Below are positions 1,355 to 45,999 of a stretch of DNA of 64,000 nucleotides, piece after piece; position 1 is the first letter of the stretch, and every line of letters starts with the position of its first letter. The notes under the pieces were generated by a model. That model did not search any database and was not told where the DNA came from. It was given only the letters and a program-made list of their open reading frames with translations. The position numbers were made by a program, and so were the translations under genes. Source of the stretch: a phage; the sequence record QB031382.1. One strand, 5' to 3'.

Positions 1355-2845
1355 GTGGCTAAGTATGGATTGACAGAGGCTGGTTTCGTTATACCAACCC
1401 TAAATGACCTAATCGTTGAAACTAAGCAAAGCCTGATCCGTGCTTTTGGCGAAAACTTCAACGTACAGAGTAACTCCGTTGCAGATAAGCTGACCACTAT
1501 CTTCAACGAGCGAGAGTATCAACTTATTCTTATGGCAGCATCTGTATACGCATCACAGACGCTGTATGGGGCAGAAGGTATTTACCTAGATGAGCTTCTT
1601 GGAAGACAGGGTATTTACCGAAGAGGCCGTTCTAAATCATCAGGTACCTGCCAGTTGACAATCAACACAACTGTGCCGTACAATATGATTTATGATTCCA
1701 AAACTTATACGCTGGACAGTGGCAACTTTGTTCTTAGCAACGATGTGCAAGTAGCAGGGAATCTTATTGCTCACAGAATAAATGCTCCAGACCTAAGGAT
1801 TGGGAAATACAACTTCCAAATTACCAACCAGACAGATGGAAGTATCAAAACAAAAAGCCTGGTTTTAACAGATAAGTCTCTGGACTCTTCTGATTTGCCA
1901 AGCTTTTACGGAGAGATTAAGCAATTCATTGTCGATAATACAACCCTGTTGAACGACGATTTGATTCAGATCGATATGTTGACAGGGACGTTGTGGATAG
2001 GGTACAATTCAAATCTTGATCAAGTTGGACTTAATAGCAGAGTAGATTTCAGAGTATCCCCGATTGTAGGGGAAAGAACTATCACACTGGATGTTATCGC
2101 TAACGAGGCTGGTGAGCTGTCAAGAGAAGCAGAAACCGTGACAACAATGTCGCCTACTCCTAGTGGATTTATCAAGCTTACCAACCGAGAAAGATTCAAT
2201 GAGGGCAGGGATGTTGAGAAGGACTCAGAGTATCGCTTAAGAGCTTCCAGCACTAAACAGTTAACATCTAAAGCTACCCGTCCTGCAATCCTTAGCGCTG
2301 TAAGCGAGGTGAAAGGTGTTGAGAAAGTAAGAGTGTTCTCTAACAACACCGATAAAACGGATGCGAAAGGTATACCACCTTATAAGTTTCAAGTGGTGGT
2401 GTTCGGTGGTGCAACAGAGGATATCTGTCAGGCGCTGTATCAAACCATAGCTTGCACAAACAGAACTTATGGGAATATCTTCTACGATATTACCACATCA
2501 GACGGTCAGACTGAAAGGATTTATTATTCTAAGGCAAACACTTACCGCCTGGATATGAGAATTACCTACTCAGGTGCTGCGCTTTCTACTACCGAAAAAG
2601 ATGCCATTACAGAGGCTCTTTTGCAGGTTGTTAACGGCTTGGATGTTGCCGATACGTTGTACAATATCCAATTGGTCGGTGCTGCATCTGCTGCTGTGTC
2701 GATAGGCAGATTTAATAGACTGGTAATTCAAGTTAAACCTGTGGGAGCTTCTGATGAAGCTTACACTACAAACGACATTGTTGCGAACATGACCGAGGTG
2801 TTTGACCTCGATGAAAGTAATATAACTTTCCAACAAACTATTTAA
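1355..2845 (+). CDS. baseplate J-like protein (baseplate wedge)
   Basis: 496 aa; N-terminal pattern AFG...F.ERE...VY.SQ...A.G..LD.L resembles Baseplate_J family (P2 gpJ / Mu gp47); lies in fibre/baseplate block. Confidence 0.5.
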   Translation: MAKYGLTEAGFVIPTLNDLIVETKQSLIRAFGENFNVQSNSVADKLTTIFNEREYQLILMAASVYASQTLYGAEGIYLDELLGRQGIYRRGRSKSSGTCQLTINTTVPYNMIYDSKTYTLDSGNFVLSNDVQVAGNLIAHRINAPDLRIGKYNFQITNQTDGSIKTKSLVLTDKSLDSSDLPSFYGEIKQFIVDNTTLLNDDLIQIDMLTGTLWIGYNSNLDQVGLNSRVDFRVSPIVGERTITLDVIANEAGELSREAETVTTMSPTPSGFIKLTNRERFNEGRDVEKDSEYRLRASSTKQLTSKATRPAILSAVSEVKGVEKVRVFSNNTDKTDAKGIPPYKFQVVVFGGATEDICQALYQTIACTNRTYGNIFYDITTSDGQTERIYYSKANTYRLDMRITYSGAALSTTEKDAITEALLQVVNGLDVADTLYNIQLVGAASAAVSIGRFNRLVIQVKPVGASDEAYTTNDIVANMTEVFDLDESNITFQQTI

Positions 2846-2856
2846 GGTGGCGGGAT

Positions 2857-3543
2857 ATGGCAGAGATTAAGTCGGATGTTAACCACATCCACACTCTGCC
2901 AGATTTTGTTCAGGGGGGTCTTGACTACCTGCCTGGAGATTTTCTGGCTGAGAAGGTTAATTTAGTCACATTCTTAACCGTGTACCTTAAAAGGTTGGAG
3001 GATGTTGATAAGATGCTGGTAGGTTTGGCTGAAGGAAGATTGCTTAACAATGCCAGCGGAAGATACCTTGACGAAGTTGGTAATCAACTTGGTATTCTTA
3101 GGAATGGACTTTCAGATGCTGATTTTCGTGCCACACTAATTATTCAGCAGGCCGCAGCATCAAGGGGCGGGACTCGCGAAGATGTCATCTCCACCTTGCG
3201 ACAATTGTTCGGAAGAGACAATTTCGATACGTGGAAAGGAGACAACTTCAGGCTTGACATAAATATTAGAAAAACTTGCTTTGACATATTGCAGTCTATT
3301 GATCAGATCTTAGACATGCTACCATTGCCTTGTCATTTGCGTCTTACAGAATCGCAAGGGCAAGCTTTTGGTTTTGAAGGGGACTCTACAGCTCTTGGCT
3401 TCGGATCGGTGTGGGAAGAAAACCAATTCGGAGTTGGTGGGCTGGCTACTTTGTTGTATGTTCCTGACGTAAGACCTGACTGGGACACCACAACCATTTA
3501 TTGTGAAAGTATTACAGTAAACGCAACTAGACAGGAGGGTTAA
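2857..3543 (+). CDS. putative baseplate/tail protein (gpI-like position)
   Basis: 228 aa directly after the J-like gene with good RBS; call is positional only. Confidence 0.3.
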   Translation: MAEIKSDVNHIHTLPDFVQGGLDYLPGDFLAEKVNLVTFLTVYLKRLEDVDKMLVGLAEGRLLNNASGRYLDEVGNQLGILRNGLSDADFRATLIIQQAAASRGGTREDVISTLRQLFGRDNFDTWKGDNFRLDINIRKTCFDILQSIDQILDMLPLPCHLRLTESQGQAFGFEGDSTALGFGSVWEENQFGVGGLATLLYVPDVRPDWDTTTIYCESITVNATRQEG

Positions 3544-7683: not shown

Positions 7684-8727
7684 ATGACTAAACCAGTTAT
7701 CCCTCTTGATATTTGGGCCAATCAGGATGTTGTGCTTGAAAATACAGGAGAGTTGAACAAATCTCAACCGAACAAAGAAGAGAGATTGAAAGGTTGGGAT
7801 ATGACACAAAGGATAGCATGTGAAGTTGTTAACTTTGAACTCCACATGCTCTCTGCGTGGCTAAAGCATTTAACAGAAGATGTTGTCCCAGGATGGGATA
7901 ATAGATTCTTAAGGGTCACTAATAATCTGGCAGACGTTCCAGACAAAGCTGCTGCACGTCAAGTTCTCAATGTATACTCGCCTGAAGAAATGGATGACCT
8001 TTATGTTGACAAGGCTGGAGACACAATGATCCAGACTCAAACTTTAGGTCTTCAAAGAATCGAGTTTGCATCCGCGTCAACAGATAGTGCGGCGATATAC
8101 ACCACTATAACTCCAGACAAGACGATGATGGATTTCTGGATTATGGACAACATCGGTGGTGCTGACGGCACAGACCTTGATGATCCCTCTCACCAAATAG
8201 ACGGTTTCCGTTGGAGATTTCAACCTTCTGGTGGGCAGCCTGTGTTTTCGGCTATGAAGCTCAATGCTATAACTGCCAACCGTGCAAGACTGGCTATCCA
8301 AGGAAATCTTGAATGCAATGATGCAAAAAGCTCCTCTGCAAATGCTAATGCGGTAACGATACCTAGAGCCACTGTTAATGGACAACAATCCTGCGGCAGC
8401 GCTCAAATAGATGGAAGAGTAGATTGTAACGATAAAACCGCCAGGGGTCAATATGCAACAGTTGGTGGAAGAAACGTGGTCCGCAGGGTAAATGGTAGTA
8501 GCGCAGACAGTAGTGGTAACCTTACTATTCCTATGCCTAGTAGGGGTGTTGAAGATGTAAGGATAGCAAACCGTTTCAGAACCACCTACAGAGAATCAAG
8601 AGTATACCCTGGGCATGTAATGTGCTCCGGCAATTACGCCTATAAACACCCGTATCAGGGCGACTATTGGACTGGAGCTATTCAAAAATTTGTAAACGGT
8701 CAATGGATCACCATATCTTATGCTTAA
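7684..8727 (+). CDS. tail fibre protein, paralog 2
   Basis: 347 aa; N-terminal domain and C-terminal KFVNGQWITISYA paralogous to 5628-6668. Confidence 0.55.
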   Translation: MTKPVIPLDIWANQDVVLENTGELNKSQPNKEERLKGWDMTQRIACEVVNFELHMLSAWLKHLTEDVVPGWDNRFLRVTNNLADVPDKAAARQVLNVYSPEEMDDLYVDKAGDTMIQTQTLGLQRIEFASASTDSAAIYTTITPDKTMMDFWIMDNIGGADGTDLDDPSHQIDGFRWRFQPSGGQPVFSAMKLNAITANRARLAIQGNLECNDAKSSSANANAVTIPRATVNGQQSCGSAQIDGRVDCNDKTARGQYATVGGRNVVRRVNGSSADSSGNLTIPMPSRGVEDVRIANRFRTTYRESRVYPGHVMCSGNYAYKHPYQGDYWTGAIQKFVNGQWITISYA

Positions 8728-36277: not shown

Positions 36278-38345
36278 ATTTATGGCATCTGCATACAACC
36301 GTTTCGGTGAGCCAAACCCGAAAGCAACTAAGTATAAAAGTGGGGGAAGTGTGAAACGAGACTATCGTGATGAAAAAGAAGTTGAAACTGTAGAGACTGT
36401 TTTAGAAAATACCAAAATTGTCCCCGTCCCACAACAAAATATCGGTCTGATGGCTGCACAATATTTTGGTGTGCGATCAGCATTATCCCAAGAAGATGGT
36501 GTGACAGTCACTGCAACATATTTCCCATATTACGACCGCTACGGAAATCTGTCCGGTTTCAAAAAGCGTGACTGGACGATTCCTAAAGAGCAAAGAGGCC
36601 ATTTCTCCGTTGTTGGCATAGTAAAGGCTAACTCTCAGATGTTTGGTCAAAAGCTGTGTGCATCTTCCAACAACCGTAAGCAGATTAACGTTTGTGAGGG
36701 AGAAGGTGATGTTATTGCAGCATGGCAGGCTGCATATCAGATACAAGTAAAAGGGATTCTCACCAACGCTAAAGCCCCGGCAAAGGTGAAACAGTGGGCT
36801 AAAGAGGTCCAGGACGGGATCGATGCAGTTATCAACGGTGGCGATCTGGCAGGAAAACCATGCCTGCCTTTTGTTGGAATTAACTGTGGATGTGCAAACG
36901 CAGTAGATACTTTTGCAAACAATGAGAAGTTTATCCGTAGCTATGGAACAGTTGTGCTGGCAATGGATAACGATGCAGCTAACGAGGTAGAGAAGCAAAA
37001 ACACGTCATTAAAGGTGTTGAGGCCACGCACAATATCGCAGCATTTTTGATGGCTGATAACGTTTACCACGTGGAATATCCTGGCGAGGTAAACGACCCT
37101 GATGGTGTAAAAGATATCCGTGACATGCTGAAGGCTAAAAAGCTGGAAGATATTGTAAACATGTTCCGGCATCCTGTTAAGTATGTGCCGGATGCTGTGT
37201 CGGATTTAGAAGACTTCTCTATCGAATCTTTGCGGAAAAAGACTTCCAACGGGGTAGATATCAGCGCAGAGTTCCCAAAACTGCAAAAAATGCTGAAAGG
37301 CTTGCACAAAGGGACACTCGTAATGCTTACAGGGCCATCAGGGGGCGGTAAAACAACTGTAGCTAAAAAACTGGAACATTGTATTGCAAGATACTTGATG
37401 GACCCGACATGCCCGAAGGCCGATGACTATGAAGAGGATGATCGTCTATGCATGATCCATCTTGAGGAGGACCCAGAGGAAGCAATTAACTCCTTGTATG
37501 CAAACCAGTTAGGGTTTGATGTTAAAGAGTTTGTTGAAGATCCTAGCCAGTTTTTAACTGATCAAGAACACGCAGAGATTCACCAATCATGGGCAAAAGC
37601 TGGAAAAATCAAAGTGTTCAAACATTTCGGATCTATTCCGGTGGACGAGTTGATTACCAAGCTTAAGCAAATGGTTTGCCTGTACCATTGCCGTTATATT
37701 GTGCTGGATCACCTGTCCATGGTAATTTCAGGGCTTAATGTTAAGGATGAGCGAAAAGAGCTGGACATGGCTATGACCCAACTGGCTGCGTTTTGTAAGC
37801 AGTTTAACGTGTTTATCCTAGTGATCGCTCACCTCAAACGTACAGAGATTGTGCCTCCTAAGGACAAGGATGGTAACCCGTTACCTTTCTGGTATCCTGT
37901 GCGAAAAGAGAATTTGCGAGGATCGGCTGGGCTTGAACAGTTGAGTTGGGTAGTCATAGGTGTTGAGGCTGAAGAAATGGTAGATCGTTCTCGTGGTCGT
38001 GTCCGTTTAGTAGGTCTTAAAAACCGTCCAGCAAAAACATTGGGTATTGCGGATACTTTGGTTATGGACCCACATACAGGTAAGTTCCATGATGCCAGTA
38101 ATTGGTACTGGGACAAAGAAATGCAGATGTTTACAGACGGAGAAGGTGGGGAGGTTGTTTGGAGACCTCAGGCCATGTTTGAGGACCAAGAGCATGCAGT
38201 TGTAGAAACACCTATGGGCAAGGTTGTAGCTGATAAGGTTGTAACTCCTACTATTAAGCCTGTTGACACGCAGGAAGACCTCCAGTACGATGATCCATCT
38301 TCTGATCCGGTCCCCGGTTTTGAAGATGATGAAACACCTTTTTAA
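36267..38345 (+). CDS. primase-helicase (TOPRIM primase fused to DnaB/gp4-like helicase)
   Basis: TOPRIM acidic motifs VCEGEGD and LAMDNDAANE; helicase Walker A LTGPSGGGKTT. Confidence 0.7.
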   Translation: MGSKFMASAYNRFGEPNPKATKYKSGGSVKRDYRDEKEVETVETVLENTKIVPVPQQNIGLMAAQYFGVRSALSQEDGVTVTATYFPYYDRYGNLSGFKKRDWTIPKEQRGHFSVVGIVKANSQMFGQKLCASSNNRKQINVCEGEGDVIAAWQAAYQIQVKGILTNAKAPAKVKQWAKEVQDGIDAVINGGDLAGKPCLPFVGINCGCANAVDTFANNEKFIRSYGTVVLAMDNDAANEVEKQKHVIKGVEATHNIAAFLMADNVYHVEYPGEVNDPDGVKDIRDMLKAKKLEDIVNMFRHPVKYVPDAVSDLEDFSIESLRKKTSNGVDISAEFPKLQKMLKGLHKGTLVMLTGPSGGGKTTVAKKLEHCIARYLMDPTCPKADDYEEDDRLCMIHLEEDPEEAINSLYANQLGFDVKEFVEDPSQFLTDQEHAEIHQSWAKAGKIKVFKHFGSIPVDELITKLKQMVCLYHCRYIVLDHLSMVISGLNVKDERKELDMAMTQLAAFCKQFNVFILVIAHLKRTEIVPPKDKDGNPLPFWYPVRKENLRGSAGLEQLSWVVIGVEAEEMVDRSRGRVRLVGLKNRPAKTLGIADTLVMDPHTGKFHDASNWYWDKEMQMFTDGEGGEVVWRPQAMFEDQEHAVVETPMGKVVADKVVTPTIKPVDTQEDLQYDDPSSDPVPGFEDDETPF

Positions 38346-38403: not shown

Positions 38404-40827
38404 ATGAGCATGTGGTCGTTCGATTTTGAGTCATCCGGTTTGCTGGAAGACCCAGATCTTTATTATCACTGCGGTCTGTTTAAAGAGTTGAATAAGAACC
38501 GTTTTATGCTGTTCCTTCCTCTAAATGACCGCACACACTACTCCGAGGAGGATATAGAAAAGGCTAAGAACTTCATTCTGGCAAAGAAAACTCTTTATAA
38601 AGATTTTGAAGTTCGCATAGCAGATTTTTCGGAGTTGGAAGGTTGGCTTACAGGAAATTCTGACTGGTCACCAACAGCTTTGAACTGCCATAACTGCTAC
38701 AGTTATGACTTTATGCTGATGGAAAGATTATCCGGTATTCATTTTGATATGTTCCGTGATCCTAAATGCATGGGGACTATCAACGACCACCAGGTTAACC
38801 TGTTTGATACGTTGGCGATGAGCCGAATCTTATGGCCTGATCGCCCTTTACCAAAAGGTTGTCCTGACTCCGTATTCAACCCGGTTACTAAGAAAATGCA
38901 GCCTGTTGGTCCTCACGGCCTTATGGCATGGGGCTACGCCCTTGGTAACCAGAAAGTTCAAATTGATGACTGGCGCGATCTTCCGTTGTGGAAGTATGTG
39001 GATCGTGTATTCGAGGACGTTATCATCCAGGAGCTGCTCTGGAAAGAGCTGGTAGCGGAATCAAAAGGTGTATTCTACGGCAAATCTGACATGCAGAACT
39101 TTATGTACGATCCTGCCAAAGAGAAGCCGAAAGGGTTCAAGAAGATCACCTGGAAGAACGCATTGCGCCGGGGTATGCTGCAACACTTCCTGATGGAGCT
39201 GCAGGCCCGTCAGGGTGTGTATTTTGACATAGATGGGGCTATTGCTTTACGTGACCGTTGCGATGCGTGGATGAAAGAAATCGCTGATCGTGTTGAACCA
39301 CAACTACCTTTAAAAGAGCTGTCAATGTCTCAGCGGCCCAAGTTCCCTGAAAAGCCGTTTAACCAAGATGGGACAATCTCCAATAATGGTTGGAAATGGT
39401 TAAAAGATAAGCTTGGCTATCCTGTGGACATGAGCGCTTTAGAGTTCAAAGCCCCACCTAAGCGAGCATTTACCTCCACAGGGGATGTCAGTAAGATGGG
39501 GATAAAATGGTGTGAAGAGATGGGCTGTAAAGACCCTGATAAGATGGCTGATTTCTTGAGGGGCTATATTAAGGGCACTTCCACACCACAACCTTTACCT
39601 AAAGAGCTAATGGATCAGGCAATAAGTGATCTACAGCAGAAGCGAATGCCTGACTGCAAGATACCTATGAAAATCAGCAATCAGGACGACATTAAGCGAT
39701 ACCTGATTAGTGCTGGTTGGCTTCCGACAATGTGGAGAACTAAGGATGTAACTAAAGACAGCAAGAAGAAAGCTCTACCTGATGCAGATGTTGATGCACG
39801 AGTATATGCATATATGGACGAGCTTTTAGAGTCAGAGTATTGTGACCTGATTATCAACTTCTGGAACAAAACTGATGCTAAGTTCCAGACAACCGTGCAC
39901 AAGTTCCGAAGCTTTCCTAACTCCGAAAGGATTAAAAAGGAAGTATTCGGGAAAATACGTAGAAAAGCTAGGGCACTTATTACTTCTCCGCAACTGAAAG
40001 ATACGTTTGGACACCTATGCCCTAATCTTGAAAAATTGAACGGAGAGATGGCTAAAGATATCGTCTTGTGGTTATCATTGCGAAACCGCAGATCGGTACT
40101 TGATCCAATTAAGGAGGATAAGGTTGATACTGGTCTTCTTAATCACCCACGTTTGAAGATTGACCATAAGCTTCCTGCTAAAAGTTCTGGGTTAACAAAC
40201 ACTTCCCGACAGAAACACAGTATTTGTGCGAACATGCCTAAACCATCTCCTAAAGTGGTTATGGGTAAAGAGATGCGTAGTCTGTGGGGTGTTCCTCCGG
40301 GATACTTTGAGATCGGTATTGACGGGTCCAACTTAGAGCAGCTTATCGGGGCTTGGGGTGCCTTTGAGTTCGACAACGGCTTGTATTATGATGTTGTAAG
40401 TAACGGGGACGCACACCAAAACAATGCTGAGGCATATACAAAAGTAGCAGGCAGAGAGGTGTCTCGTAACGACGGTAAACCTATCACGTATGGGGTTATG
40501 TACGGGGCACAAAAAGATAAAGTTGCAGACATGCTGGATATCTCTCCAGAGTTGGGGCAAAGGGTAATCGATGCGCTTTGGGATGCCAACCCCGGTCTTA
40601 AGGGGCGTAAAGAGGATCTAGAGAAATTCTGGGAAGCAACAGGTAAGAAATTTATCTACTCTTTTGACGGTCATGCCATTTGGACCCGCTCTAAACACTC
40701 TTTGCTTAATGCATATCAGCAAAATGGCGGTGCCTCGTTGTGCGACTTGGTCGGAATCCTCATGCACCACCAAATGGTGAAGCGTGGATGGTATGATGAG
40801 GGTGTTCGTCGTATTATTTATTACCAT
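38404..40827 (+). CDS. DNA polymerase family A, exon 1 (3'-5' exonuclease, polymerase motifs A and B)
   Basis: Exo motif FDFESSGL; motif A IGIDGSNLEQLIGAW; motif B RNDGKPITYGVMYGAQ; tail aligns with T7 gp5 up to just before HDE; the in-frame stop at 40831-40833 is intronic. Confidence 0.8.
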
Positions 40828-41155
40828 AAATAACATTGTGGCTTCGTGCAGTGATGCACGTCGAAAACCTCTTTAATTGACGGGAAGGCTAAGTTGACTT
40901 TTACACCTAAACATGGTAAAAGCTCAATATGCTAATCCGCAGCGAAGCATCCGAGAGGATGAACGTTCAGAGACTATCGAAAGCATAGCTCCAACATAGT
41001 TTGGTGTGAAGAAGCGAGTAGAGTAGGCCAGCAAGTGCGGTCGAAATGAGAGGTGCCTTGGTAACAAGGCAGTGAGATAGTCCGATCCATACGGGAAACT
41101 GTATGGCTATGCACGTAATGGTGCGGGGTAGCTTAACGACCTACCTGAACTATTG
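40828..41155 (+). ncRNA. group I self-splicing intron (no internal ORF)
   Basis: Conserved P/Q/R/S elements in order: AATTGACGGGAAG (40875), AATCCGCAGC (40934), GTTCAGAGACTA (40965), GAGATAGTCC (41074); exon ends in U (40827) that can pair with GTGG guide at 40838; intron ends in G (41155); splicing gives YYH-DEYQLQV. Confidence 0.8.
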
Positions 41156-43307: not shown

Positions 43308-43708
43308 TGAAAAACATTTGGGATATCAATATCTTTGAAGCCTCTGAGCTTGACGGTGCCGATGGGGTTATTATAGTTTCTGATGGAAAGGCAACACTGA
43401 CCTCTGGACTGACCTATGAGGACACTACCTACGCATTGGGCGATCTTGCCTTGTTGAAATCAACAGGCGACTCTCTGGAAGAACGTCTGCAAGGATTTGC
43501 CTTTAAAGAAGGCACAAACACCACACTGATGTGCACTACACGCACTGTTCAGTTGGGCAACGGGGTATATATGGTCATTGCAGTGTGCCCCAAATTCAGC
43601 AACATTAATAAAGATGATGCTGACGCTGTCAACGACGTGGTTGTCCTATTCGTGGGTGACGCTATGGCAGATCTGATGAATGCAGGAGAAGCAGCAAATG
43701 AAGACTGA
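43304..43708 (+). CDS. hypothetical protein
   Basis: 134 aa. Confidence 0.4.
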   Translation: MMKNIWDINIFEASELDGADGVIIVSDGKATLTSGLTYEDTTYALGDLALLKSTGDSLEERLQGFAFKEGTNTTLMCTTRTVQLGNGVYMVIAVCPKFSNINKDDADAVNDVVVLFVGDAMADLMNAGEAANED

Positions 43709-44000
43709 AAACATTACACCAGAAGGATTCCTGAAAGTATACCGTGAACTATTGTATACCACAGAGGATAGTGTTCTAGAGTACCCAGAATATCTTTTGC
43801 TGTATAAGTATCTGCAGGAAGCTGGTGAAAATCTTCCAATTAGCGCAGAAGGTGGTCCAAACTGGGTCTACAGTGCATGGAGAAAGGTTGACATTCTCCC
43901 AGATCCCGGTAAAGATATGGTAGTTTGGCAGCTTATCAACAACATCGGGATTCCAATCTTTGATGAAGCTGTTAAAATCTATTTTGAACTTGACGATTAA
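43698..44000 (+). CDS. hypothetical protein
   Basis: ATG after RBS GGAGAAG. Confidence 0.4.
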   Translation: MKTENITPEGFLKVYRELLYTTEDSVLEYPEYLLLYKYLQEAGENLPISAEGGPNWVYSAWRKVDILPDPGKDMVVWQLINNIGIPIFDEAVKIYFELDD

Positions 44001-44345: not shown

Positions 44346-44711
44346 ATGGAACAAATGAACGATCAAGCGTCGGTTGCGATGAACGAGCAAGAACAACCTC
44401 AAGAATTTTTCTTAGGGTTAAGCAAAGATCAGGTGTCTCTCCTGCTAGTGCTCTCTTCTTTCATGGGGAGACTTCAGGAGCTCACACAACAACCAGAGGC
44501 TGAACAATTATTTCAGGCTCTGCGCGAAGAAGAAAAATATCGTCGTTTGGATTATGCCTTAGGTTGGGTAGCTCAGCAACGAGATATGCTAATGGCCCTT
44601 TCTGGGACGACAAGTTTTGCAATGGGCCTGTTGGCTCAAGTGCAGGACAAATTAATTCAAGCAGGGTTTGCACACACAGCAAACACCAACGAAGAACAAG
44701 GAGACAAATAA
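44346..44711 (+). CDS. hypothetical protein
   Basis: ATG after RBS GGAGA; Gln/Glu-rich. Confidence 0.4.
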   Translation: MEQMNDQASVAMNEQEQPQEFFLGLSKDQVSLLLVLSSFMGRLQELTQQPEAEQLFQALREEEKYRRLDYALGWVAQQRDMLMALSGTTSFAMGLLAQVQDKLIQAGFAHTANTNEEQGDK

Positions 44712-45937
44712 TGAGCGTTATTCAACAATTTGCCAACCCGATGAATCCGCGTGAAACTGTTTTACTGGCTCACGGCATGATTAAACGTGTCAGCATCAAA
44801 CCTATCAAAGGTGCTGATCCTACAACAGGTATTAAAACCACTGTGTGGCAAGGTAAGAAAATCGAGTCCAGTCACACCATCTCTTTACTGATTTCTGAAC
44901 TGGATTCTTCTGATAACCTACTTCAAGGTGGTGAAGAAGTTTGGATCAGTATGGGTGATAAATTGCTCAAACCTGGTCATCAAGATTCCGTCTCTGTTAA
45001 AATTGATGACAAGTGGGAAACAGTAACGCCAGGATGGATCGTAAATATCCCTTTAAAGGCAAATGAGCATAACGGTAAGACCTACTACAAAGGCTCATTG
45101 GCTAAAATGGTTAAGCTGGGGGCAGGAGAGGCTCCAGCAGCTCCACAGCAACAAAAACAGCAACAAGGCACACAATCACAAGGCCAGAAGCAGAAACCTC
45201 AGCAGAATGCCAATCAGGACGTTTTACGCATCTATGGTGATGTGACTCAGATTGTTGGTAACGTGGTTACTGTCAATGACCACAAGATTGGCGAAGGTGC
45301 TATGGTTGTCTCCGATGAGCAGCTTAAAGACCTGGTGGTTGGCGGTCGTGTTGCAGCTATTGTTGACAAAGACACCGGGAATATTATCAGCGGCTTCAAG
45401 GCCTACCCGCCTAAAGCAGAGAACGGTACACAAGGTTCTGGTGGTAAGCGTAAATCCTCTTACGACCCCATTGGTGTAGAGACAGGGCACAGTATCAATG
45501 CGTTGCAGATCATTCTGGATCGCGGGTTTAAGATTGACAGCCCTTTAGATGTGGCTAAAACATTGCACGTGGTCACCATCGAGCTTAAGAAAGAGTACGC
45601 TCAAGCCACCAACCGGACTGAAGATGAAGTAGGTGCCAGTGTTGGTAACGCGGTATTGAATGCTTGTCGCCGTATTGACAAGAAAACGAAAGTTGATGAT
45701 TTTGCAGCAGCAATTACTGCAGAGGCAAAAGATGTCTTGACTAATCTTGCTGAACCGTTGTACGATTGGATCAAGAATGGTGCGGGGACTACTGAGCATC
45801 AAGAACCTCAAGCTGCCAAACAGGAAGCCACTCCACAGCAAAACACTGTAGATGCCCCTCCTGTAGATGATGACGGAGATGACCCGATGGATCAGAATCC
45901 GGCACAATACGCCTTTGATGATGACATTCCTTTTTAA
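44711..45937 (+). CDS. SSB-like protein with acidic C-terminal DDDIPF tip
   Basis: Start ATG after RBS AAGGAGA; terminal ...AFDDDIPF matches the bacterial SSB C-terminal tip; Gln-rich linker; N-terminal body not a clear canonical OB fold by eye. Confidence 0.5.
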   Translation: MSVIQQFANPMNPRETVLLAHGMIKRVSIKPIKGADPTTGIKTTVWQGKKIESSHTISLLISELDSSDNLLQGGEEVWISMGDKLLKPGHQDSVSVKIDDKWETVTPGWIVNIPLKANEHNGKTYYKGSLAKMVKLGAGEAPAAPQQQKQQQGTQSQGQKQKPQQNANQDVLRIYGDVTQIVGNVVTVNDHKIGEGAMVVSDEQLKDLVVGGRVAAIVDKDTGNIISGFKAYPPKAENGTQGSGGKRKSSYDPIGVETGHSINALQIILDRGFKIDSPLDVAKTLHVVTIELKKEYAQATNRTEDEVGASVGNAVLNACRRIDKKTKVDDFAAAITAEAKDVLTNLAEPLYDWIKNGAGTTEHQEPQAAKQEATPQQNTVDAPPVDDDGDDPMDQNPAQYAFDDDIPF

Positions 45938-45951
45938 CATCTAGTTAACAT

Positions 45952-45980
45952 AGCCCTGCCCGAAAGGGTGGGGCATTTTT
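45952..45980 (+). terminator. rho-independent terminator
   Basis: Stem CCCTGCCC-GAAA-GGGTGGGG then CATTTTTG; duplicate of 35467 element. Confidence 0.55.
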
Positions 45981-45999
45981 GTATAAGGAGATCTGAAAA

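Follow-up and report, generated by a model that had tools for sequence, protein, structure and literature searches.

A 64,000-nucleotide stretch of phage DNA (record QB031382.1; hereafter the window) carries, within its replication module, a gene for a 408-residue protein that ends in the same six residues as the SSB of Escherichia coli, its single-stranded DNA-binding protein. We consider it probable, at roughly 70%, that this gene encodes the phage's own divergent replicative SSB, a member of a family that is unclassified in curated libraries (PHROG 4477) and that uses a host-type tip. The core of this insight, an SSB-like protein with an SSB-type tip, is already known from a 2026 preprint on an orthologue of 96.6% identity (bioRxiv 10.64898/2026.04.29.721553). 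To it we add the existence of two architectures in the family, a near-universal tip, conserved synteny, the confinement of SSB sequence similarity to the tail, and an extension that follows the tip in some members. The window phage is a Vequintavirus, an rV5/FV3-like E. coli myophage.

An SSB-type tip conserved across the family

A preliminary description, made from the letters and a list of open reading frames (ORFs), had placed the gene at 44711-45937 with a DDDIPF end, and both are exactly as described. The ORF begins with ATG and ends ...DQNPAQYAFDDDIPF, reading YAFDDDIPF; the stop codon follows directly, so that the C-terminus of the window protein is free. The ORF is backed by its ribosome-binding site, by the overlap of its ATG with the stop codon of the upstream ORF (TAATG) and by a terminator-like hairpin with a T-run 3' of the gene (45953-45974). 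A longer, TTG-start ORF from 44564 (457 amino acids) was ruled out as the gene by the ribosome-binding site and by the N-termini of homologues, all of which start MSVI or MSVV. The description had also matched the last residues to the tip of bacterial SSB, and this too is borne out: they are the DDDIPF of E. coli SSB, as given in PMC5872125, and are conserved across the family.

Homologues were collected at two depths. A word-indexed search returned 57, down to 34% identity, while 1.84 billion cluster representatives, searched exhaustively with a profile, yielded 251 at E ≤0.001 and 174 at E ≤1e-10; the family comprises at least 251 clusters at 50% identity. Lengths and endings were counted in 150 listed representatives of the 251. 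Two architectures were apparent, a short form of 200-330 amino acids (107 of the 150) that consists of a first oligonucleotide/oligosaccharide-binding fold (OB1), a helix bundle and a tail, and a long form of more than 330 amino acids (33 of the 150) in which a second such fold (OB2) is inserted. Endings of the type [ILVMA]PF were present in 109 representatives and close variants (PW, DF, or PF followed by one or two residues) in another 25, while 11 are fragments or lack a recognisable tip. IPF is invariant in 31 of 31 close and mid-range homologues; among 76 diverse members, proline stands at position -2 in 72 and phenylalanine is the last residue in 70. An exact DDDIPF end was found in 47 of 203 sequences, and seven sequences share their final 11 residues, PPMDFDDDIPF, with E. 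coli SSB; DDDIPF is also present on E. coli-type phage SSBs. The tip is not a chance match, because the odds per C-terminus are ~20^-6 and because it is conserved family-wide.

Phi92 gp156 and homologues in phages BME3 and Eryne ('single-stranded DNA-binding protein') are short-form members of the same family as the window protein. They have OB1, the helix bundle and an acidic tail with DFDDDIPF, and the gp156 gene lies just downstream of the polymerase; gp156 differs from the window protein in its length (315 amino acids), in the lack of OB2, and in a 15-residue extension after the tip (APIGLQYGRNFLHCF). A division of the protein in phi92 between gp157 (OB) and gp156 was considered and rejected: gp156 is a complete short form, and gp157 is unrelated to the gene upstream in the window.

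Predicted domain architecture

We modelled the full 408-residue protein with AlphaFold2 (AF2), using a 31-sequence alignment. In the model, three domains are folded with confidence, and residues 140-169, 237-250 and 360-408, which separate or follow them, are disordered (Table 1). Modelled alone, OB1 reached a predicted local distance difference test score (pLDDT) of 89.7 and a predicted template modelling score of 0.82. Its closest structural matches were domains of SSB, PriB and RPA, with OB domains of MCM and CST also among the matches; the alignments cover ~85 residues at ~3 Å and ~10% identity. The predicted OB2, which is present only in long-form family members, has the element order of a classical OB fold (beta1-beta2-beta3-alpha-beta4-beta5). 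The bundle region holds the most conserved positions of PHROG 4477 (D252, G255, G259-H260, N263, H286, G312 and N/H313), and G108 in OB1 is likewise conserved among family members. OB1 is presumed to be the main domain for binding single-stranded DNA (ssDNA), and the four-helix bundle is presumed to serve oligomerisation or cooperativity.

The preliminary description had judged that the N-terminal 120 residues do not read as a classical SSB. This holds at the level of sequence, where Pfam, NCBIfam and PDB gave no match, but the predicted structure is an OB fold. The further idea of a non-OB body, against which the description itself had said that a clear OB-fold prediction would count, is refuted, because an OB fold is clearly predicted. 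On the strength of the models, the fold class of the body is settled as OB; homology to one particular SSB family is not. The Gln-rich linker described before the tip was partly misplaced: segment 356-402 is indeed rich in Gln, Pro and acidic residues and predicted to be disordered, and is analogous to the intrinsically disordered linker of SSB, but the strongly Gln-rich stretch (~144-168) is internal, between the OB domains.

Sequence similarity to SSBs is confined to the tail

The PHROG 4477 profile ('unknown function') matches the window protein with E 2.3e-172, over residues 1-408 and profile positions 1-393 of 393, and is also matched by all 76 diverse members. Pfam gave no match to the window protein even at E up to 10, and none for the 76 diverse members; NCBIfam gave no match to the window protein, and PDB sequences returned nothing significant, whether the query was the protein by itself or a profile of the 76 members. 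Matches to cold-shock OB proteins at E ~0.5 were rejected as not significant. Weak matches of some members to PHROG 'SSB' profiles were likewise rejected as a sign of homology: every case examined maps to the last 25-50 residues, and these matches are therefore driven by the tail. Similarly, phi92 gp156 matches TIGR00621 in the tail only (E 0.01, far below cutoff), and no match of the OB domain to the PF00436 or TIGR00621 sequence models was found. This sets the protein apart from ordinary SSBs: outside the tail it is unrelated in sequence to PF00436/TIGR00621, and it has an extra OB2 and a conserved bundle.

The gene belongs to a T7-like replication module

The SSB-like gene lies ~4 kb downstream of genes for a helicase(-primase) and a family-A DNA polymerase, with small ORFs between; the polymerase gene (38404-40833) is annotated as a DNA polymerase in all records, including those of FV3 and rV5. 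The order helicase(-primase), polymerase A, small ORFs, SSB-like gene is shared by the window, FV3, phi92 and two distant metagenomic short-form loci. FV3 encodes a polymerase, a helicase-primase, a ligase, exonucleases, endonuclease VII and ribonucleotide reductases, and none of its genes is annotated as an SSB. With E. coli SSB, T7 gp2.5 and T4 gp32 as queries, tblastn detected no homologue in the genome, which also holds no paralogue of the SSB-like gene.

The helicase(-primase) itself ends (~38319-38342) in an acidic, SSB-tip-like tail, ...DPSSDPVPGFEDDETPF, reading GFEDDETPF, and the helicase-primase of the related Klebsiella phage KpS8 ends in ...PDDDTPF followed by the extension that some SSB-like proteins also carry (see below). 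In T7, gp4 and gp2.5 carry paired acidic tails that end in Phe. By analogy, this arrangement suggests that the SSB-like protein and the helicase may share a docking site. At a metagenomic short-form locus (L007), the SSB-like gene is directly preceded and overlapped by an ORF at 7837-8001 that resembles T7 gp5.9 (Pfam Phage_T7_Gp5_9, the RecBCD-inhibitor family); this reinforces the T7-like layout of the module.

In the mechanism that we propose, OB1, aided by OB2 in the long form, would bind ssDNA exposed at a T7-like replisome built on a DnaB-type helicase-primase and a family-A polymerase, and the conserved four-helix bundle would mediate self-association or cooperative coating. The disordered acidic tail would display a DDDIPF identical to the host SSB tip, which could recruit, or compete for, proteins with a docking site for the C-terminus of SSB. 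Its partners may be host proteins such as ExoI/SbcB, phage replisome proteins, or both (compare the T7 gp2.5 tail). Binding of ssDNA, bundle-driven oligomerisation and the partners of the tip are what we infer for the window protein, as distinct from the ORF and its signals, the predicted architecture, the OB class, tip conservation, synteny, the lack of another recognisable SSB and orthology, which are results of the analysis, and from the role in the DRT10 defence, which is taken from the preprint.

An orthologue triggers the DRT10 defence

The preprint, dated 30 April 2026, describes the DRT10 (UG17) reverse-transcriptase defence, studied with the BASEL phage Bas52 (MZ501102), and identifies Bas52_0087 (QXV84166.1) as the DRT10 trigger, required for activation during infection (10.64898/2026.04.29.721553). 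Two mutants that escape DRT10 carry D252V or Y351C in Bas52_0087, and these mutations were placed at a 'putative oligomerization interface'; from Phold and AF2, the protein was judged there to be SSB-like, since it has two OB folds and a C-terminus that is disordered and bears an FDDDIPF tip. According to the same work, dosage of SbcB/ExoI counteracts DRT10 defence, and its authors suggest competition of the tip with SbcB.

The Bas52_0087 gene corresponds to 75981-77207 of MZ501102 (phage RudolfGeigy/Bas52), and its locus tag and accession agree with the preprint. Like the window protein, Bas52_0087 has 408 amino acids, is encoded at the same locus, ends in DDDIPF and has D252 and Y351. The two proteins are identical at 394 of 408 positions (96.6%) and differ by 14 substitutions, mostly in linkers; on this sequence comparison, the window protein is the Bas52_0087 orthologue. 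D252 is kept in 60 of the 76 diverse members, and Y351 only within the close clade. A literature search found no paper besides this preprint that mentions the protein.

Comparison with known SSBs

Like bacterial SSBs (E. coli SSB; PF00436, TIGR00621), the window protein has its OB fold first, then a disordered low-complexity linker and an acidic DDDIPF end; it thus combines an N-terminal OB fold of the ssDNA-binding type with an [IL]PF-type acidic tip after a disordered linker. OB1 is, however, larger (138 amino acids) than the bacterial SSB OB, with ~85 residues aligned at ~3 Å, and OB2 and the conserved four-helix bundle are present in the window protein but not in bacterial SSB. The mode of oligomerisation probably differs from that of bacterial SSB.

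T7 gp2.5 resembles the window protein in its replicative setting, with a helicase-primase and a family-A polymerase, and in its acidic, Phe-ending tail (...EDGDF); the window protein likewise carries such a tail within a module of helicase-primase and polymerase A. According to a summary within the DARNA preprint, the terminal Phe of gp2.5 is needed for contact with the T7 DNA polymerase. The tips differ, being of the host-type IPF kind in the window protein and DF in gp2.5, and so does the gene order, since T7 gene 2.5 is upstream of genes 4 and 5, whereas the SSB-like gene is downstream of the helicase-primase and polymerase genes. Tblastn of gp2.5 against the genome gave chance-level matches only (best E 2.2, none on the SSB-like gene), with no Pfam (DUF2815) match, and Foldseek comparison with the gp2.5-like DUF2815 structures 4klk and 4jg2 was weak (E 0.05-0.3). 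For T4 gp32, the best tblastn match in the FV3 genome and the window had E 1.6 and lay elsewhere than on the SSB-like gene, again with no Pfam match.

A distant phage SSB, that of HK620, which needs its six C-terminal residues, NDYPPF, to recruit the phage partner Sak4 (PMC5928155), provides a precedent for a phage SSB tip that serves a phage protein; it differs from the window protein in family, in tip and in having been characterised biochemically. Phage SSBs are central to replication and recombination, and the literature shows that they commonly set off bacterial immune systems (Retron-Eco8, DARNA, Hna and DRT10). The PHROG 4477 family, which annotation pipelines miss, supplies the rV5, phi92 and PVP-SE1 phage groups with a candidate for their missing SSB, and many of these phages are candidates for therapy. 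The exact copy of the host tip frames the question of whether a phage SSB hijacks the host SSB interactome, serves its own replisome, or both.

A conserved extension follows the tip in some members

In rV5, phi92, PVP-SE1 and other family members, ~15 further residues come after the tip, and their consensus is A-P-[IV]-G-L-Q-Y-[GA]-[RK]-x-x-[IL]-[HY]-x-[LIF]. A conserved extension of this length directly after ...D-D-x-P-F, with the pattern APIGLQYGRSRIYAL, occurs on three types of protein: the SSB-like family, classical E. coli-type SSBs of phages and prophages, and helicase-primases. Tblastn with the extension peptide matched 233 phage records, including the SSBs of mEp235, g341c, ECH1 and Vibrio phages and KpS8-like helicase-primases, and an ssb with the mEp235-type extended tail is present in ~299 of 5,426 complete E. 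coli genomes, where it is annotated plainly as 'ssb'. The codons differ synonymously between copies, and the extension is therefore under selection at the protein level. Canonical recognition of an SSB tip involves the free carboxylate of its terminal Phe, so the extension should alter or block docking. We found no paper describing this motif in a literature search.

The window carries the uncapped form, in which the extension is absent and the site is empty (45934-45952). Compared with the window, rV5 has a precise insertion of ~640 bp at the terminal Phe codon (2520-3170 of rV5 locus L005), which consists of the tail extension and a 207-residue Cys-rich 'endonuclease VII' (ORF213); apart from this insertion, the flanks are identical, and so is the terminator hairpin within them. 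The ribosome-binding site and annotated ATG of ORF213 lie inside the L-Q-Y-G codons of the extension, and the endonuclease itself gave no Pfam or NCBIfam match. The rV5 insertion resembles a free-standing mobile endonuclease cassette adjoining an SSB gene, comparable to T7 gene 2.8 by gene 2.5 and T4 segG by gene 32. The possibility that the extension is a mere by-product of the overlapping endonuclease ORF in rV5 was rejected as a general account: phi92, the KpS8 helicase-primase and the SSBs of mEp235 and Vibrio V039C all have it without an endonuclease, and its codons differ synonymously among these copies.

Weighing the possible roles

The preliminary description had left a choice between a divergent phage SSB and a protein that borrows the SSB tip to compete for host partners. 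The two predicted OB folds, the position in the replication module and the lack of another recognisable SSB favour the divergent SSB, though not the ordinary SSB that the description had also allowed for.

Several observations weigh against a replicative SSB. No SSB-family sequence model in the Pfam, NCBIfam, PDB or PHROG searches matches outside the tail, and ssDNA binding by members of PHROG 4477 is a prediction from models. The statement that there is no other SSB rests on annotation and sequence searches, which an orphan SSB among the many hypothetical genes would escape. When expressed alone, Bas52_0087 neither harmed cells nor triggered DRT10 (10.64898/2026.04.29.721553). Finally, the tip is followed by 15 further residues in rV5, phi92 and PVP-SE1; these residues should keep the carboxylate of the terminal Phe from docking in the canonical way, and a free tip is therefore not essential in all members.

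A wider proposal, to which we give appreciably less than even odds, is that PHROG 4477 represents a widespread, unrecognised class of replicative phage SSBs. Such proteins might assemble through a four-helix bundle lined with His and Asn instead of OB-OB contacts, and might enter the host SSB interactome by exact mimicry of its tip. A conserved 15-residue module under protein-level selection might switch the tip between a free form (FV3, Bas52, the window) and a capped one (rV5, phi92, PVP-SE1 and many classical SSBs of prophages and Vibrio phages). If true, this switch could alter both the recruitment of partners and sensing by defence systems such as DRT10.

An unlikely but compatible role for the protein is mainly that of a decoy, which would titrate or redirect host binders of the SSB C-terminus (ExoI/SbcB, RecQ, PriA, chi, UDG and others), thereby protecting phage DNA ends or crippling host repair, instead of acting as a replicative SSB. 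The identity of the tip to that of the host, with several members copying the last 11 residues of E. coli SSB, is consistent with such a role, as are the opposite effects of SbcB dosage and Bas52_0087 on DRT10 and the competition with SbcB suggested from them (10.64898/2026.04.29.721553). A decoy would, however, have no need for a pair of OB folds plus a conserved helical bundle, the position of the gene in the replication module is fixed across very distant relatives, tblastn recognised no other SSB in the genome, and the tip is capped by an extension in sister phages. One protein could fill both roles.

Two further readings are weakly supported. We think it improbable that the protein is a recombination mediator or annealing protein, with a RecO-like OB fold and helical domain, that loads a recombinase or anneals ssDNA as opposed to merely coating it: RecO scored structurally no better than dozens of other OB proteins, with ~70-76 residues covered, RecO-type proteins bind the SSB tip but do not carry one, and the layout of linker plus tip is an SSB hallmark. 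Least probable is that the OB folds bind protein or another ligand and that the likeness of the tail is convergent or acquired by recombination, with no SSB-like function, although outside the tail the protein is homologous in sequence to no SSB, and the tail looks exchangeable among unrelated genes, the same tip and extension being found on classical SSBs and helicase-primases.

Table 1. Features of the window and of compared loci. Coordinates are window positions unless preceded by a locus number (L); domain assignments are predictions.
Feature	Coordinates	Strand	Basis or remark
DnaB-type helicase(-primase), 692 aa	36267..38345	+	Pfam DnaB_C and AAA_25; NCBIfam DnaB-type models below cutoff
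Family-A DNA polymerase, 809 aa	38404..40833	+	Weak Pfam DNA_pol_A, E 1.5e-6, below gathering score
Shine-Dalgarno AAGGAG, 7 nt 5' of ATG	44698..44703	+	Sequence read
Coding sequence of SSB-like protein, 408 aa and stop	44711..45937	+	ORF list, homology; PHROG 4477
OB1, residues 1-138, all-beta elaborated OB fold	44711..45124	+	AF2
Linker 1, residues 139-170, Gln/Pro/Lys-rich, predicted disordered	45125..45220	+	pLDDT <50 at 140-169
OB2, residues 171-232, compact five-strand barrel	45221..45406	+	AF2
Four-helix bundle, residues 253-355	45467..45775	+	AF2, four long helices
DRT10 escape position D252	45464-45466	+	Within or abutting four-helix bundle
DRT10 escape position Y351	45761-45763	+	Within or abutting four-helix bundle
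Disordered acidic Q/P-rich tail, residues 356-402	45776..45916	+	pLDDT <50 at 360-408
Tip DDDIPF, residues 403-408	45917..45934	+	Sequence; identical to E. coli SSB tip
Terminator-like hairpin GCCCTGCCCGAAAGGGTGGGGC, then T-run	45953..45984	+	GC-rich; 3' of SSB-like gene, also the 'empty site' at which rV5 has ~640 bp more
Extension, phi92 gp156	L004 4400-4468		Sequence
Extension, rV5 ORF214	L005 2501-2572		Sequence
Extension, KpS8 helicase-primase	L009 ~1519-1566		Sequence
Extension, mEp235 SSB	L010 1522-1572		Sequence
Extension, Vibrio phage V039C SSB	L011 1075-1125		Sequence

Relation to FV3 and neighbouring genes

The window protein is 100% identical to FV3_00195 ("hypothetical protein"), and the DNA of the gene is 99.7% identical to that of FV3. 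'Hypothetical protein' is the annotation in nearly all of 116 closely related records, while homologues are already labelled SSB in some GenBank records. The flanks of the gene are only 92-97% identical to FV3, and a 528-bp stretch of FV3 with the HNH endonuclease gene FV3_00208 is absent from the window (40948-40961, compared with 7724-8251 of FV3 locus L001), which makes the window a mosaic relative of FV3.

A small ORF at 43680-44000 (+), upstream of the SSB-like gene, scores above the gathering threshold for Pfam DUF7238, with E 3.7e-7. Comparison gave no support for a conserved partnership between the SSB-like gene and the gene upstream of it. In FV3, FV3_00208 lies between the ORF of the 809-residue DNA polymerase and a 118-residue ORF that is also annotated 'DNA polymerase', and mobile endonucleases thus show presence/absence polymorphism between the window and FV3.

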